Below, piece by piece: positions 39,163-44,808 of a stretch of 64,000 bases of DNA. The DNA is from Christensenella sp. UBA3217 (GTDB taxonomy: Bacteria; Bacillota; Clostridia; Christensenellales; CAG-1252), in NCBI GenBank assembly GCA_002363545.1, contig DEWF01000001.1, positions 240,272-304,271 of the forward strand, read 5' to 3'. A program made the position numbers and the translations under genes. Each line of letters begins with the position of its first letter. Position 1 is the first letter of the stretch. A model generated the notes under the pieces. The model was not told the origin of the DNA, did not search any database, and saw nothing but the letters and a program-made list of their open reading frames with translations.

Positions 39163-39273
39163 ACTTTACTTATTATAATATAAACGATAAATAATTGCAA
39201 TCACATGTTTTTTTATAAATTTAATCCATTGATTATAGAAAAAACATATTGTATAATAATAATTGAGGTAATT

Positions 39274-41022
39274 ATGTATCAGTCACTATATAGAAAATAC
39301 AGACCCGATACCTTCGAAAAAGTTATCGGACAAGATCATATCACCAAAACACTGGTAAATCAGATCAAAAGCGGGAACATTGCCCATGCTTATTTGTTGA
39401 CCGGTACAAGAGGAACGGGCAAAACTTCCGTGGCAAGGATCTTTGCACGTGCGATCAACTGTCTTTCTCCCCAAAACGGTTCTCCCTGCGGAGAATGTGA
39501 TTGCTGCAAAAAGTTGCTTGCCGGAACCAGCCTGGATATCGTTGAGATAGACGCCGCCAGCAACAATTCGGTTGATGATGCCCGTGCCATACGTGACAAC
39601 GTAAGATACGCCCCTGTGGATTGTAAATACAAAGTTTATATTATTGACGAAGTGCACCAACTTTCCGGCGCTGCTTTTAATGCGTTACTGAAAACTTTGG
39701 AAGAACCGCCTGCACACGCCGTGTTTATTTTGGCAACCACCGAAGTACAAAAGATCCCCGCAACCATCATGAGCCGCTGTTTGAGACTTGATTTCCACTT
39801 GGTCCCGCAGGAAGTGTTGGAAAAACACGTGGCGTGGATCTTTGATCAAGAGGGTGTCAAATACACCAAAGAGGGCGTAAGCGCCATAGCGCAAGCAGGG
39901 GAAGGAAGTGTGAGAGATACCCTTTCCGTGGCGGATATGTGCGTTTCCTTTTCCGATACCGTTTCTTATGAGAGCGTTCTTGGCGTACTTGGCGCGAATG
40001 ACCCCGCCATGATAGCAAACATTGCGTTTGCAACACTTTCCGGCGATATCAAAGGAGCAATAGACCTTATCGAATCATCCGCATCACTCGGAAAGAGCGT
40101 TCAGCTTCTCACCAAAGATCTCACAAAATATTTCCGTGATCTTATTATAATCAAACACGATGCCGAAGCGAACGCTATTTTAAAACTGCCTGACCGACTG
40201 TTTGCGGTGGCAAACGAGATGGCGCAAAAGTTTAACGCCGTTACGTTGATGCGTGCTTTGGATATTTTCTCGGGGGTAGAAGCTAAATCCAGGTTCAGCA
40301 ATCAACCCAAGATCCTTTTGGAAACCGCCATCATTAAAACGGCAACGCTTTCCGGTGAAGATATTGGGGATTTGATTGCCAAAGTAACCGCTTTGGAAGG
40401 CAAATTGAAGGATCTGGATGCAATGCCGCAACAAAAACCCGATTACAGCGCTATCAAAAATATGCTTACTCCTTCCCAAGCTCCCGTAGCGGCGACTGCT
40501 ATCACTTCCGCGTCAACCCTAAAGGAAGAAACCAAACCAACCGAGACGGAAGTACCCACGAGCGATCTTCCTTTTGATTTACAAGACGCCACAGCAACCG
40601 AAGCGCTTCCTTTCGATACTGCGCAAGAAACACCTGCGGCACCCGAAAGCATTGAAGACGTGTCCGAATTTTTGCCGAGTGCTGTAAAAAACCAAATGAC
40701 AAAACTGCGCGGAAGGGTCTTAAACAAGTTCCGTGCCGGCGCGCTCAACATGCTTTATATTGCATTTTTGGATGCAAAAAGCACGATTTTTAAGATTCAA
40801 AACGGTAAAATTATCATTGCATTCAAAAATGAGATGAATTACAACTACTGCAATACGCCCACCATCTTGGAAACCATTAAAAGGGTTTTCTCCGAAGAGA
40901 TTGGCGAACAGGTAGAGGTATCCATCATATACTTTAACGATAATGCGCCCAACGCGCTTTCCACTCAGGATATCATAAAACTCTTTTCCGGAGCGGAGTC
41001 TATCGACATTAAAAGGAGGTAA
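39274..41022 (+). CDS. dnaX: DNA polymerase III subunits gamma/tau
   Basis: MYQSLYRKYRP, GTRGTGKTS, Zn cysteines, IDEVHQLS, SRC. Confidence 0.96.
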   Translation: MYQSLYRKYRPDTFEKVIGQDHITKTLVNQIKSGNIAHAYLLTGTRGTGKTSVARIFARAINCLSPQNGSPCGECDCCKKLLAGTSLDIVEIDAASNNSVDDARAIRDNVRYAPVDCKYKVYIIDEVHQLSGAAFNALLKTLEEPPAHAVFILATTEVQKIPATIMSRCLRLDFHLVPQEVLEKHVAWIFDQEGVKYTKEGVSAIAQAGEGSVRDTLSVADMCVSFSDTVSYESVLGVLGANDPAMIANIAFATLSGDIKGAIDLIESSASLGKSVQLLTKDLTKYFRDLIIIKHDAEANAILKLPDRLFAVANEMAQKFNAVTLMRALDIFSGVEAKSRFSNQPKILLETAIIKTATLSGEDIGDLIAKVTALEGKLKDLDAMPQQKPDYSAIKNMLTPSQAPVAATAITSASTLKEETKPTETEVPTSDLPFDLQDATATEALPFDTAQETPAAPESIEDVSEFLPSAVKNQMTKLRGRVLNKFRAGALNMLYIAFLDAKSTIFKIQNGKIIIAFKNEMNYNYCNTPTILETIKRVFSEEIGEQVEVSIIYFNDNAPNALSTQDIIKLFSGAESIDIKRR

Positions 41023-41025
41023 ACT

Positions 41026-41358
41026 ATGGCTAAATTCAACGGTTTCGGCGGCGGAGGTAATATGGCGCAACTGATGCGTCAAGCACAAAAAATGCAGCAA
41101 GATATGCTCGCCAAGCAAGAAGAACTGAAAAACACCGAATTTACCGCACAAGCAGGCGGCGGAATGGTGGAAGTGACCTTAACGGGGGAGAAAAAGATCG
41201 TTTCCCTTAAAATCAAACCCGAAGCGGTGGATCCCGAAGACGTGGAAATGTTGGAAGATCTTATCGTTGCCGCGTTGCAAGAGGGCTTTAATTTGATCGA
41301 TCAAGAAACGGCAGAAGCAATGGGCCCCTATGCGGGAATGCTCGGAGGCTTAAACTAA
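41026..41358 (+). CDS. ebfC: YbaB/EbfC nucleoid-associated protein
   Basis: LMRQAQKMQ, AGGGMVEV, DVEMLEDLIVAA. Confidence 0.93.
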   Translation: MAKFNGFGGGGNMAQLMRQAQKMQQDMLAKQEELKNTEFTAQAGGGMVEVTLTGEKKIVSLKIKPEAVDPEDVEMLEDLIVAALQEGFNLIDQETAEAMGPYAGMLGGLN

Positions 41359-41359
41359 C

Positions 41360-41950
41360 ATGGAATATATAGAGCCGATATCCAGGCTCATTGCCGAATT
41401 CACAAAATTGCCCGGCGTTGGTAAAAAAACCGCCGCAAGGTACGCTTTTTCCGTTATCAATATGCCAATGGAATCGGCGGAAAACTTTTGCGATGCCATC
41501 ATGAAGATCAAAGAATGCGTGAAACTATGTAAGGTTTGCGGCAATTATACCGATCAAGAGGTGTGCGAGATATGCAAAACCCGCGATAAGAGCGTCATTT
41601 GCGTTGTGAAAGAGCCAAAAGACGTGATCGCACTTGAAAAAACCAAGTCATACGGTGGAGTATATCACGTTTTACACGGTCATTTGAGTCCGCTGGAAGG
41701 CATTGGCGTATCCGATATCCATATCAAAGAACTGTTGGAACGCATTGCACAGGGCGGTGTAAAAGAAGTCATCATCGCAACCGGAACCGACCAAGCGGGT
41801 GAAGCAACAGCGCTGTACATTGCCATGCTTGTGAAACCGCTTGGCGTGAAAGCAACCAGGATCGCAAGGGGTCTTCCTTCGGGAAGCAACTTGGAATATA
41901 CCGATGAAGCAACCCTTTCACGTGCGTTAACAGATAGAAAAGAGATATAA
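41360..41950 (+). CDS. recR: Recombination protein RecR
   Basis: LPGVGKKTA, C4 zinc finger, YHVLHG.LSPLEG, TRIARGLP.G. Confidence 0.96.
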   Translation: MEYIEPISRLIAEFTKLPGVGKKTAARYAFSVINMPMESAENFCDAIMKIKECVKLCKVCGNYTDQEVCEICKTRDKSVICVVKEPKDVIALEKTKSYGGVYHVLHGHLSPLEGIGVSDIHIKELLERIAQGGVKEVIIATGTDQAGEATALYIAMLVKPLGVKATRIARGLPSGSNLEYTDEATLSRALTDRKEI

Positions 41951-42010: not shown

Positions 42011-43339
42011 TCACTTTAAATGATAGCGTTTTGTGTTGTACAAAACAGCGTAAATCAGAGTATAAACAGGCAGATCCACAAAAAGCAAGAAGGGGTAGAG
42101 AAGGGGACGAACCATCGTTTTGGGGCTGCCAAGATCCGCTTTAAAGAGGAAGAAGGCAAATAGCATAGACACAATCACAAGATTGATGGTTAGCATGATC
42201 ATGCCGGACAAAGCCGTTTTAAGATCAAATTCCGCTCGTACGCGTTTATCGGGTTTGATCAAGTACATAATCACACCGAAAATGGGAAAAACGAGTAGAA
42301 TACAGCCTGTGACGATATAAAACACAAAACCAAGGTTTGCATAACGGTCAAAAGCAAAGCCTGCCACCAACAACTCCACCAGCATAAAGAGATACAACAG
42401 TAAGAAACTATCCCTCTTCAAACGAGAAGAGAAAATAAAGTTCATAGAATAATAGGAAGTGGAAGCCGCTTTGGAATAGGGATGCAAACGATATCCCTCA
42501 GCCTGGGCGCGTTCTTTTAATTCTCCATAATTAAAGGCGCTGTGATTTGCCTCTTCTTTGGGGGCTTCTTCTTGTTGAACCGAGATAGAAGGGGGAACGG
42601 GGGTATTAAAAAGATCGTTAAGCGGGGTGAGATAATCGTCGTTTTGCGATAATTTTTCCTGCAAAAAATCTTGCAAAATGCCTTCTTGAGCAGGTTCCTC
42701 CGCTTGAGCAGCCACATAGGACTCCAAATCGATCTGTGTGCCTTCCACGTGCGTGCCGAAAATAGCGTTTTGAATGGGTTTAACAGGCTCCATATCGGGT
42801 TCAGGTGTGCCATCGTCCTCTAAAACGGGAGATTCTGAAACAGCAAGAGGTTCGTTTGGTGTTTCCGCATCCCGATCCTGCGTTTCCTCAGCAGAATCAA
42901 CAGAAACTTCCTCCTGCGCGGCATTTGCCACGCCAACACCACGTTTGGTGCGAGGTCTGAGCTCGCTGGGATCAAAGGGGCGGGGGGCATTTGTCAAATC
43001 GAATTCCTTATCGGAAAGAAGCCTATTCAAAAGGGTGCGGGAAAACTCCCATTGCTTGATATCGTCTTCCACAAAAGTGCGGCCTTTATCGGTGATGGAA
43101 TAGTATTTGCGTTGTGCGCCGTTGGAAGTTTCACCATCATAGGAATTGATAAACCCTTGCTTTTCCAAACGTTTCAAACAACTGTATAAAGTTGGTTGTT
43201 TGATCTCGTAAACACCATCTGTTGCAGAAGAAATGGCTTTATGAATATCATAGCCATAACTGTCACCGGCAGCTAAAAACCTTAAAATGAAGGAATCTAC
43301 GTGATCCCGAATCAAATCCGTGTTTACGTTGTTTTCCAA
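42011..43339 (-). CDS. PadR-family winged-helix protein with an acidic linker and ~4 C-terminal TM helices
   Basis: SYGYDI...IKQPTLYSCLKRLEKQGFI...RKYYSIT..G; acidic, Pro-rich middle; hydrophobic C-terminus; AGGAG RBS, TTG start. Confidence 0.8.
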   Translation of the reverse strand: MENNVNTDLIRDHVDSFILRFLAAGDSYGYDIHKAISSATDGVYEIKQPTLYSCLKRLEKQGFINSYDGETSNGAQRKYYSITDKGRTFVEDDIKQWEFSRTLLNRLLSDKEFDLTNAPRPFDPSELRPRTKRGVGVANAAQEEVSVDSAEETQDRDAETPNEPLAVSESPVLEDDGTPEPDMEPVKPIQNAIFGTHVEGTQIDLESYVAAQAEEPAQEGILQDFLQEKLSQNDDYLTPLNDLFNTPVPPSISVQQEEAPKEEANHSAFNYGELKERAQAEGYRLHPYSKAASTSYYSMNFIFSSRLKRDSFLLLYLFMLVELLVAGFAFDRYANLGFVFYIVTGCILLVFPIFGVIMYLIKPDKRVRAEFDLKTALSGMIMLTINLVIVSMLFAFFLFKADLGSPKTMVRPLLYPFLLFVDLPVYTLIYAVLYNTKRYHLK

Positions 43340-43459
43340 AAGGGTTCTCCTATATGTTAATATTTTACTTTTTTATAATAATCTTTGTCAAGGCGTATCG
43401 GAGATTATTTCGCAAAGTGGGGGAGTATCGCTCTTCGACAATATTTTTATCCTCCATTA

Positions 43460-43493
43460 AACTATTCGCAAAACACAACTTTTGCGAATAGTT
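43460..43493. other. Perfect 14-6-14 palindrome; candidate dif/Xer recombination site
   Basis: AACTATTCGCAAAA-CACAAC-TTTTGCGAATAGTT, ~155 bp upstream of a tyrosine recombinase gene. Confidence 0.6.
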
Positions 43494-43613
43494 AGCACAA
43501 GAAATAAGTCGATTTACTTTAAAAATGTATTTAAATTAAAACAATCACTCGAAAATTGCATTTTAAACAAACAAGCAGATTTATTGTTAATCGATACGCT
43601 TTTGGGATTTATC

Positions 43614-43642
43614 TTTACAGGAATTGCGAATCATGATAAACT
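43614..43642 (+). promoter_or_regulatory. SigA promoter, leaderless xer
   Basis: TTTACA-N17-(TG)TAAACT-N6-ATG; the spacer contains TTGCGAAT, the palindrome half-site core. Confidence 0.55.
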
Positions 43643-43648
43643 ATATAT

Positions 43649-44719
43649 ATGGATGAAACTTATTTTGACAATCGCAATAAAGACGTAATCTTAAAGATAC
43701 GTGAATTAAGGAGCGAATTACCTTCTTTTTGCAATGAATTCTTTATTGGTGTGGAAAGTCGCACAACTCCTTTAACACGTTTGGCTTATGCGTATGACCT
43801 TCGCATCTTTTTTGATTATATCCTTTCATACGTCAGAGAGTTTCGGTCTTATACTTTAGATACCTTTGGACTTGCCGAGCTTGACAAGATCAATCAAACG
43901 CACATCGAATCCTTTTTGGAATATTTAAGTTTTTATCGTTTTAATGATAAAGAATATAAAAACGATGAACGTGCAAAAGCACGTAAACTATCAACTTTAC
44001 GCTCGTTTTTTAAGTATTACTTCAATAAAGGCAAATTGACCAGCAACATGGCAAGTAAAGTGCCAACACCCAAGATACACGATAAAGAGATCGTTCGCTT
44101 GGAAGGTGCCGAGGTCAGCTCACTTTTGAATACGGTGGAAAACGGTCAAAAACTAACCGATCGCCAACAAGCCTATCATAAAAAAGTAGGTTTGCGTGAT
44201 CTTGCCATCGTCACGCTGCTTTTAGGGACCGGTATTCGTATTTCCGAATGCGTTGGGCTTGATATTGATGATCTTGACTTTAAAAACAACTCGTTTACCG
44301 TCACAAGAAAAGGCGGAAATAGAAAAATCCTGTACTTCCCCGAAGAAGTTTCAGACGCTTTACGCAAGTACTTGGAAGAAGACCGCCTTCTTTCCGATGC
44401 CGAAACCGATGCCCTGTTCCTATCCATGCAAAAAAAGCGTATTACCGTGCGCGCCGTGGAAAACCTTGTTAAAAAATACAGCAAGTTGACTACGCCGCTT
44501 AAAAAGATCACACCGCACAAACTTCGCAGCACATACGGTACCAACCTTTACTATCGCACCAATGACATTTTTGTTGTTGCGGAAGCACTTGGGCACCGCG
44601 ACGTTAATACTACCAAAAAACATTATGCCGCCATGAGTGAAGAAATCTTACGTAACGCCGCCGAGATCACCGTTTTGCGCGAAAACGCCGATAAAGATCC
44701 GGATAATCATTCCAATTGA
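43649..44719 (+). CDS. Xer-family tyrosine recombinase
   Basis: Complete catalytic set: GIRISE (R), RKGG (K), HKLR (HxxR), LGH, KHY (Y); 356 aa. Confidence 0.92.
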   Translation: MDETYFDNRNKDVILKIRELRSELPSFCNEFFIGVESRTTPLTRLAYAYDLRIFFDYILSYVREFRSYTLDTFGLAELDKINQTHIESFLEYLSFYRFNDKEYKNDERAKARKLSTLRSFFKYYFNKGKLTSNMASKVPTPKIHDKEIVRLEGAEVSSLLNTVENGQKLTDRQQAYHKKVGLRDLAIVTLLLGTGIRISECVGLDIDDLDFKNNSFTVTRKGGNRKILYFPEEVSDALRKYLEEDRLLSDAETDALFLSMQKKRITVRAVENLVKKYSKLTTPLKKITPHKLRSTYGTNLYYRTNDIFVVAEALGHRDVNTTKKHYAAMSEEILRNAAEITVLRENADKDPDNHSN

Positions 44720-44742: not shown

Positions 44743-44776
44743 AAACATTTGTTCATTTTTATGCGAACAGATGTTT
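44743..44776. promoter_or_regulatory. Two Gram-positive SOS boxes upstream of lexA
   Basis: AAAC-ATTT-GTTC (44743-44754) and GAAC-AGAT-GTTT (44765-44776); the second overlaps the -35 of TTTACA-N17-TATACT. Confidence 0.75.
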
Positions 44777-44808
44777 ACATTTTATTTTGGTTATGTTATA
44801 CTATGGGC

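Follow-up and report, generated by a model that had tools for sequence, protein, structure and literature searches.

What does a perfect 34-bp palindrome do when it lies next to the gene of a tyrosine recombinase, at the very point where a bacterial chromosome changes its compositional polarity? The question is raised by a 64,000-nucleotide stretch of Christensenella sp. UBA3217 (C1:240272-304271), referred to here as the window, which comes from an assembly of 1.42 Mb in 12 contigs that is 91.65% complete. The answer that we favor, and consider likely, is that the palindrome is the core dif site of the adjacent Xer recombinase, and that the pair would constitute a self-contained, single-recombinase module for the resolution of chromosome dimers at the replication terminus. 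The parts of this answer differ in weight. The status of the palindrome as a recombination site is well supported by the comparison of genome sequences; beyond that, we infer that the adjacent Xer is the enzyme and acts alone, that FtsK controls the reaction, and that dimer resolution is its physiological role.

The site occupies positions 43460..43493 of the window, with no strand assigned to it, and is a perfect 14-6-14 inverted repeat. Its left arm, AACTATTCGCAAAA (43460-43473), and its right arm, TTTTGCGAATAGTT (43480-43493), are 14 nt each and 100% complementary, and the 6 nt between them, CACAAC (43474-43479), form an asymmetric central region. The gene that follows, xer (43649..44719, + strand), begins with an ATG 155 bp from the end of the palindrome and encodes a 356-aa Xer-type tyrosine recombinase that matches Pfam PF00589 (Phage_integrase) with 114 bits. 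The first-pass annotation of the window had described just such an arrangement, a perfect palindrome with a 6-bp spacer about 155 bp upstream of an intact tyrosine recombinase, and the description proved accurate, all six catalytic residues of the enzyme being present. By our own arithmetic, which assumes equal base frequencies, a perfect 14 + 14 inverted repeat with a fixed 6-nt gap would be expected about 2e-4 times in 64 kb by chance. The whole 34-bp site occurs once in the 1.42-Mb assembly, both as an exact copy and with up to three mismatches allowed, as had been anticipated. A search of the genome for a 28-bp Bacillus-type dif gave no match at or above 20/28 positions.

Two readings of the palindrome as part of a rearranging or mobile unit are ruled out. 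It is not an inverton, the arms being just 6 bp apart, and it is not the attL or attR of an element within the window, where a single full site is flanked by housekeeping genes and element genes are absent. Fifteen contigs of the same species present the same picture as the window, without an integrated element. There is also a second exact copy of the lone arm TTTTGCGAATAGTT, without a partner arm or a matching spacer, at C6:256916-256929, where it stands among housekeeping genes. It precedes a gene for a membrane metallophosphoesterase-like protein by about 100 bp, and its distance from the skew minimum at dnaA-dnaN, described below, is about 11.8 kb. An exact 14-mer is expected about 0.01 times in 1.42 Mb by chance. 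That this copy is the hybrid site of an integrated element is ruled out, given its mismatched spacer and its housekeeping neighbors.

If the palindrome is the site of the recombinase, it should accompany the gene in other species, and this was examined in a scan with one genome per species that covered 289 relatives, in records labelled Christensenella, Christensenellaceae or Clostridia metagenome-assembled genomes (MAGs), and from which 80 loci were kept. The expression CG[CT]AAAA-N6-TTT[TA][AG]CG has exactly one match in 52 of these 80 orthologue loci, whose recombinases are 51-84% identical, when about 0.03 matches would be expected by chance in the DNA scanned (own arithmetic). In the 52 matching loci the site is always upstream of xer, at distances of 13-1345 bp, and never downstream, and the spacer is always 6 bp. 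The suggestion that the palindrome would be found upstream of orthologous xer genes is thus borne out, and the arms carry a further signal in the way they change. Over 44 distinct sites, at arm positions not fixed by the expression, the two arms vary in step: position 4 is T in both arms of 35 sites and A in both arms of 7 (mixed in 2), position 2 is A/A in 28 and T/T in 11 (5 mixed), and position 7 is T/T in 20 and G/G in 16 (8 mixed), while position 6 is T in 88/88 arms, with no mixed site. Such symmetric covariation is as predicted for one protein that reads both arms. The spacer differs among species but keeps the form NACAAS, and it occurs in both orientations relative to xer. At arm position 10 (the C/T of CG[CT]AAAA) we also observed that, over the 44 sites, a left C is combined with a right T in 19 and the reverse in 1; this bias may represent a built-in asymmetry of the half-sites in many species, and it is absent from the site of the window.

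Could the palindrome be bound by no protein at all and be a hairpin instead, whether a terminator of transcription or a stem-loop in RNA or DNA? Folding is conceivable for a perfect stem of 14 bp, and the covariation, taken by itself, is also what an RNA stem would show. The orientation of the repeat speaks against a terminator, however: its A and T runs point toward the spacer, that is, the loop, and no T-tail follows the stem, whereas the remaining long inverted repeats of the window are terminator-like (bidirectional) with their A and T runs on the outside. It also lies between two divergent promoter regions and not at the end of a gene. As for a folded stem in general, the sites that are mixed at arm position 7, with T in one arm and G in the other, would give T-C or G-A mismatches on whichever strand is folded. 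We consider a hairpin of this kind scarcely credible.

What, then, is the recombinase? The residues of its active site (R197, K221, H290, R293, H316, and Y326) are invariant in 31 orthologues of 51-83% identity. Against the NCBIfam models the product scores 172.9 bits for XerS, 167.4 for XerA, 159.4 for XerC, and 152.1 for XerD, where the curated cut-offs are 267 (NF003462), 220 (NF040815), 335, and 330 bits, respectively, and it therefore falls below the cut-off of every named Xer family. The alignment to the XerS model nonetheless runs from end to end (residues 12-339 against model positions 5-354 of 360), and all 31 orthologues match that model with the same ranking of families, the best XerS E-value being 5.4e-62. 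Among solved structures, the closest by sequence are XerD (75.8 bits), XerA (72.5 bits), and XerH (5jjv; 49.6 bits), the last matching in the catalytic domain only. An AlphaFold (AF2) model of the product has a pLDDT of 85.3, and Foldseek searches with it place XerA, XerD, and XerH nearest, ahead of Tn1549 Int, IntI, lambda Int, and Cre. Public databases name the product only as "integrase," "tyrosine-type recombinase/integrase," or "XerD." By the curated thresholds it belongs to neither the XerS nor the XerH family.

It is also the sole Xer-like gene found in the 91.65%-complete assembly, the other PF00589 gene being a phage-type integrase, or one of the kind carried by integrative and conjugative elements, at the end of contig C11. 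A system of two recombinases, the second encoded in the unassembled ~8% of the genome, would be compatible with an incomplete assembly in 12 contigs, and with the XerC/XerD-type pairs that are present in most Firmicutes (PMC3025954). The arms of the site, however, are identical here and covary symmetrically over 44 sites, as they should for one protein on both arms, and both the gene-beside-site layout and the length of 356 aa match known single-recombinase modules (PMC1914069, PMC5357621). A second, missing recombinase is in our judgment very unlikely, and a single enzyme acting on both arms is the reading that we carry forward.

A site of dimer resolution belongs at the replication terminus, and the composition of the contig places the palindrome there. 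The cumulative G-C curve of the 412-kb contig C1 has a single maximum at C1:283,399, which is position 43128 of the window and 332 bp to the left of the site, and falls afterwards; in 10-kb bins the skew turns from +0.02..+0.13 into -0.05..-0.13. We map this switch in terminus polarity to 43100..43500, again with no strand assigned. The first-pass annotation had read the strand composition as that of a terminus and had called for an inflection near 43.5 kb, which is what the curve gives, and its remark that gene orientation converges near 45 kb is equally upheld by ORFs (open reading frames) of at least 150 aa, nearly all of which are on the + strand up to ~45.4 kb and nearly all on the - strand beyond. 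A terminus-type switch is seen at this site only among the 12 contigs; the remaining contigs are monotonic, except C6, which has an origin-type minimum at 268,699. From gene order and N-terminal sequence, that minimum appears to sit between dnaA-like and dnaN-like ORFs, followed by recF-, gyrB-, and gyrA-like ORFs. Because the C1 maximum and the C6 minimum are the sole inflections, the assembly contains one origin-type and one terminus-type switch.

The distribution of a polar heptamer tells a similar story. To the left of the site, GGCAGGG occurs 40 times in forward and 2 times in reverse orientation; to the right it occurs once forward and 20 times reverse, and the strand flip falls between 268 kb and 314 kb. 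The heptamer resembles GGGNAGGG, the KOPS (FtsK-orienting polar sequence) motif of E. coli. An FtsK of 1077 aa with alpha, motor, and gamma domains (FtsK_gamma, 65.6 bits) is encoded on the same contig at C1:395924-399157. In relatives, flanks of ±3 kb around the site have a mean skew of +0.054 on the left and -0.028 on the right, with left greater than right in 40/49 loci, and with flanks of ±10 kb the sign changes at the site in 4/5 loci. Among metagenome contigs that were located by a 22-mer of the site alone, the left skew exceeds the right in 10/11.

Evidence that strands are actually exchanged comes from relatives in which the site is occupied. At least four relatives contain insertions or junctions of integrase-less elements of 6-10 kb that lie exactly in the site, and each time the left arm and the spacer have been duplicated. 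The clearest case is that of the loci L086 and L087, which have an identical Xer and flanks identical at 1399/1400 bases on the left and 5000/5000 on the right: L086 has an insertion of 8,387 bp exactly in the site (element L086:1490-9877), L087 has the full site only, and the two represent the occupied and the empty allele of one species. The left junction of L086 reads AACTATTCGCAAAA-CACAGC-TT before it passes into foreign DNA, and the right junction, beside xer, is a full site, AACTATTCGCAAAA-CACAGC-TTTTACGAATAAAA. A second species, represented by two independent assemblies (L084/L085), has a 9.8-kb insertion of the same anatomy (L084:100-9879), and L121 has one of 6.2 kb between a hybrid and a full site (L121:726-6983). 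L104, L108, and L124 are three assemblies of one further junction of the attL type. In L109 there is an attP-like junction, with an element-like small ORF at the left and a right arm of the element type, in which the spacer is CACAAC instead of CACAGC; the equality of this spacer with that of a CACAAC host suggests, on sequence grounds, that the spacer is matched to the host. Because integrase-less elements have been inserted exactly here, with duplication of arm and spacer, strand exchange occurs at the homologous site in relatives.

The gene content of these elements is that of small filamentous phages. They encode a Zot-like ATPase of an inovirus morphogenesis family (phrog_197, E 7e-13 and 3e-10) and a rolling-circle Rep (PF01446, 46.9 bits; PF23343, 46.1 bits), together with cI-like or other helix-turn-helix repressors, Flg_new-repeat proteins, and toxin-antitoxin pairs (ParE/Phd, HicB). 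No recombinase, of PF00589 or another family, is on record among the element genes, several of whose proteins belong to no known family and might include an unrecognized recombinase. We take the elements to be probably inovirus-like prophages of gut Clostridia. The genome of the window itself carries none of them. Neither the 19-mer of arm plus spacer nor any relative of the Zot-like protein was found in a viral contig collection. Just to the left of its arm, the element DNA also mimics the host flank for about 25 bp past the end of the 14-bp arm (element gtcccgcaagggagtatatgcgc versus host ctcccgtaagggagtatatacat), as seen in L086:9847-9876 against L087:9847-9876 and in L084:69-98 against L084:9849-9878. 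This mimicry could reflect an accessory sequence, or host DNA captured in an imprecise excision.

These insertions raise an alternative for the purpose of the site, namely that it is a true recombination site of the adjacent recombinase, but one that serves as a landing pad, with the enzyme as a host integrase, for mobile elements, or that takes part in some other rearrangement, and not in dimer resolution. Element integration is indeed the only direct sequence evidence of strand exchange, and a protein below every named Xer cut-off, which databases call an "integrase" or a "tyrosine-type recombinase/integrase," would not be out of place in such a role. Yet the gene and the site stand in conserved housekeeping synteny whether elements are present or not, and the site is at the skew switch both here and in most relatives. 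No other Xer-like gene was found in the genome, which also encodes an FtsK with the gamma domain and whose polar motifs point toward the site from both sides, and integrative elements of this type are known to use sites of dimer resolution (PMC5357621, PMC9765430). We therefore regard a landing pad without a part in dimer resolution as unlikely. A self-contained, single-Xer dimer-resolution module had been proposed in the first-pass annotation; its claim to a recombination site stands, by virtue of the terminus location, the conservation, and the insertions, and the further step to dimer resolution is one that we infer.

Several observations sit less comfortably with a dimer-resolution module of this kind. 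One is the second exact copy of a single arm on C6. The part missing from an assembly that is ~92% complete and in 12 contigs could hold a second Xer or a further copy of the site. Among the 80 orthologue loci, 28 have no match to the site expression; one-mismatch sites are present among them in L009, L070, and L041 (seen in L089), two good arms are separated by a 17-bp spacer in the related genomes at L023:1808-1851 and L028:592-635, L068:144-177 has two good arms with an 8-bp spacer, and in L020, L022, and L050 a single arm, some 50 bp from where xer starts, is all that is present. Locus L092, likewise without a match, lacks a skew switch of the terminus type. The 22-mer of the site is several kb from any xer in several metagenome contigs, and the linkage of site and gene is thus frequent, not obligatory. 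Finally, perfectly symmetric arms are unlike those of difSL and difH, in which the asymmetry of the arms orders the strand exchanges.

Lone arms near the gene form a pattern of their own. An arm precedes the xer start codon by about 50 bp at L092:4997, L022:~913, L089:9922, L050:~2941, L098:2941, and L133:4847, and some of these relatives have a full site 0.9-2.5 kb further upstream. The lone arm may be an autoregulatory binding site for Xer or the scar of past element integrations.

If the module works as proposed, two Xer monomers would bind the two identical 14-bp arms, and a chromosome dimer would bring two such sites together at the septum, allowing their synapsis. Strand exchange would then take place where the asymmetric 6-bp central region (approximately NACAAS) adjoins the arms; this region would provide the only polarity of the site. 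FtsK, with its gamma domain, would probably translocate toward the site along the polar GGCAGGG motifs and activate the reaction.

The gene on the other side of the palindrome offers one more explanation for it. A PadR-domain protein of 442 aa (Pfam PadR, 71 bits) is encoded divergently at 42011..43339 (- strand), and the palindrome, 121 bp upstream of its start in the shared intergenic region, might be the operator of this PadR-family regulator, with xer a mere neighbor. It is true that the PadR gene is upstream of the site in many orthologue loci. In L011, L015, L059, and L082, however, PadR is 0.85-1.5 kb from the site with other genes between; in L042, L043, and L065 the gene lies on the downstream side of xer; in L087 its distance from the site is 8 kb; and in L046, L047, and L077 it was not detected. 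The site stays with xer or the terminus in all these arrangements, which contradicts the alternative, raised with the original description, that PadR and not the recombinase binds it. The best promoter-like match of the PadR gene (43391-43362) is between the gene and the palindrome, which is clear of it. A 34-bp footprint, a fixed 6-bp asymmetric spacer, a location at the terminus, and insertions that duplicate arm and spacer are not properties of an operator; moreover, the distance from site to xer varies from 13 to 1345 bp while the spacer is fixed and the arms change in step. An operator is on these grounds highly improbable, and the PadR gene is probably outside the module formed by the site and xer. 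The protein has a long C-terminal extension, and its relatives are longer, at 582-617 aa. The gene is often syntenic with xer, either divergent and upstream or co-directional and downstream, and no functional link to the site was found.

Other features of the neighborhood can be dealt with briefly. Upstream of xer there is a weak promoter-like match, TTTACA-17-TAAACT with a TG (43614..43642, + strand), which is clear of the palindrome; the region contains 6 such matches compared with 5.0 in shuffles, and they are hence no evidence of function. The gap between xer and lexA contains, at positions 44743-44777 of the window and just upstream of the lexA start at 44806, two SOS-box-like sequences, AAACATTTGTTC and CGAACAGATGTTTA. 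They resemble the Gram-positive SOS box and fit autoregulation of lexA. On the left, the dnaX-ybaB-recR cluster (39205-41950) is less than 4 kb from the terminus-type skew switch. The same cluster is near oriC in Bacillus subtilis, and its position here indicates that gene order has been rearranged relative to the replication axis in this lineage.

How general is the system? Full-text literature searches found no description of an Xer/dif system in the Christensenellales, or of the site sequence itself. On balance we lean toward the view that the module of the window represents a previously undescribed and widespread family of single-recombinase Xer/dif systems in the Christensenellales and related gut and rumen Clostridia, distinct from XerS, XerH, XerA, and XerL, and that its fully symmetric site with 14-bp arms would also serve as the attachment site of inovirus-like, integrase-less elements. 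Were this so, the symmetry of the arms would mean that either the 6-bp spacer by itself or FtsK determines polarity and the order of strand exchange. A symmetric Xer site would then be a natural substrate for asking how a homotetrameric Xer picks the first pair of strands and how FtsK imposes directionality. The Christensenellales are abundant and heritable members of the human and animal gut microbiota, and their chromosome biology is essentially unstudied; for the whole clade, the module would identify both a dif site and the enzyme acting on it, and would mark the terminus for the scaffolding of MAGs and the estimation of replication rates.

That one Xer should be encoded beside its terminus site is already known from XerS, XerH, and XerL, and our result is an extension of this theme, not a surprise. 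The closest parallel in organization is XerS/difSL of Streptococcus and Lactococcus, in which a single recombinase is encoded next to the terminus site (Le Bourgeois 2007, PMC1914069; Nolivos 2010, PMC2965235). As in that system, site and gene form one module at the terminus, the gene, for a single recombinase of 356 aa, following immediately after the site; XerS is the best NCBIfam match of the window Xer; AAAA/TTTT runs stand beside the central region; and the genome encodes an FtsK that has the gamma domain. The difSL of L. lactis reads ATCTTTCCGAAAA-ACTGTA-ATTTTCTTGACA (PMC2965235), and the likeness extends to the outer arm, some orthologue arms reading ATCTTTTCGCAAAA where the left arm of difSL reads ATCTTTCCGAAAA; by our own comparison, that left arm has 8/13 positions in common with the window site. 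The differences are nevertheless considerable. The window Xer scores 172.9 bits against the XerS cut-off of 267; difSL is 31 bp long, and its right arm, unlike the strong left one, is weak and divergent, whereas the window site is symmetric and 34 bp long, and difSL has CCG in its arm where the window site has CG[CT]. The hosts of XerS are Streptococcaceae, and that of the window belongs to the Clostridia.

XerH/difH of Helicobacter and Campylobacter, whose arms are AGTTATGAAAA and AAAAGTTTGA (PMC5357621; PMC5241119), is likewise a system of one recombinase, of ~355-362 aa, with the site near the gene and a 6-bp central region. The difH arm AGTTATGAAAA resembles the window arm in an outer A-x-T-T-A-T and an inner AAAA, and XerH is among the top structural neighbors of the window Xer model. 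In sequence, by contrast, the similarity to XerH is weak (49.6 bits to 5jjv) and ranks below that to XerD and XerA, the window arms are 3 bp longer with a conserved CG, and the phylum differs. The likeness to XerS/difSL and XerH/difH that had been proposed at the outset holds for the AAAA/TTTT beside a 6-bp spacer; the recombinase itself is below the XerS cut-off and matches XerH weakly.

Comparison with the remaining members of the superfamily separates the window system further. The two-enzyme XerC/XerD system with its 28-bp dif in Bacillus and E. coli has in common with it the superfamily, the active site, the 6-bp central region, the terminus location, and FtsK as partner; it differs in that the window genome has one Xer-like gene only, encoding a protein that scores far below the XerC and XerD cut-offs and is ~60 aa longer. 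Archaeal XerA is the top structural neighbor; with 167.4 bits, however, the window Xer stays below the cut-off of 220, and it comes from a bacterium and has a longer N-terminal domain.

In the manner of its discovery, the site has a counterpart in the Legionellales, where dif was revealed by LME-1, an integrase-less element that carries a dif mimic, integrates at the terminus, and leaves a modified second site (Nicholson 2022, PMC9765430). XerL/dif is similarly a lineage-specific, single-recombinase system whose site was exposed by an integrase-less element. The likeness, drawn from the published description, is between different lineages and sites, and between an XerL that has been tested experimentally and a window system known from sequence.

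The elements themselves invite comparison with the integrative mobile elements exploiting Xer (IMEX), among them the filamentous phages CTXphi, VGJphi, and TLCphi, which integrate at dif in Vibrio (PMC5357621). Like these, the elements of the relatives, at 6-10 kb, lack an integrase gene and carry genes for a Zot-like ATPase, a rolling-circle Rep, and a repressor; they bring a good arm and spacer with a degenerate other arm, and leave an intact host site at one end. With no recombinase on record and with one full and one hybrid flanking site, they have the defining features of IMEX, and because integrase-less, filamentous-phage-like elements, a duplicated arm and central region, and an intact host site at one end occur together, we read them as cases of IMEX integration at dif. 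What distinguishes them is the host, a Gram-positive-type gut Clostridium with a single Xer, and filamentous phage-like elements thus appear to use a single host Xer in the Clostridia, which would take IMEX beyond the Proteobacteria named in a 2017 review (PMC5357621). Set against Xer/dif systems in general, the module of the window has the active site, the unique core site of two inverted arms round a central region of 6-8 bp, the position at the terminus, and the FtsK gamma domain and polar motifs by which such systems are recognized.

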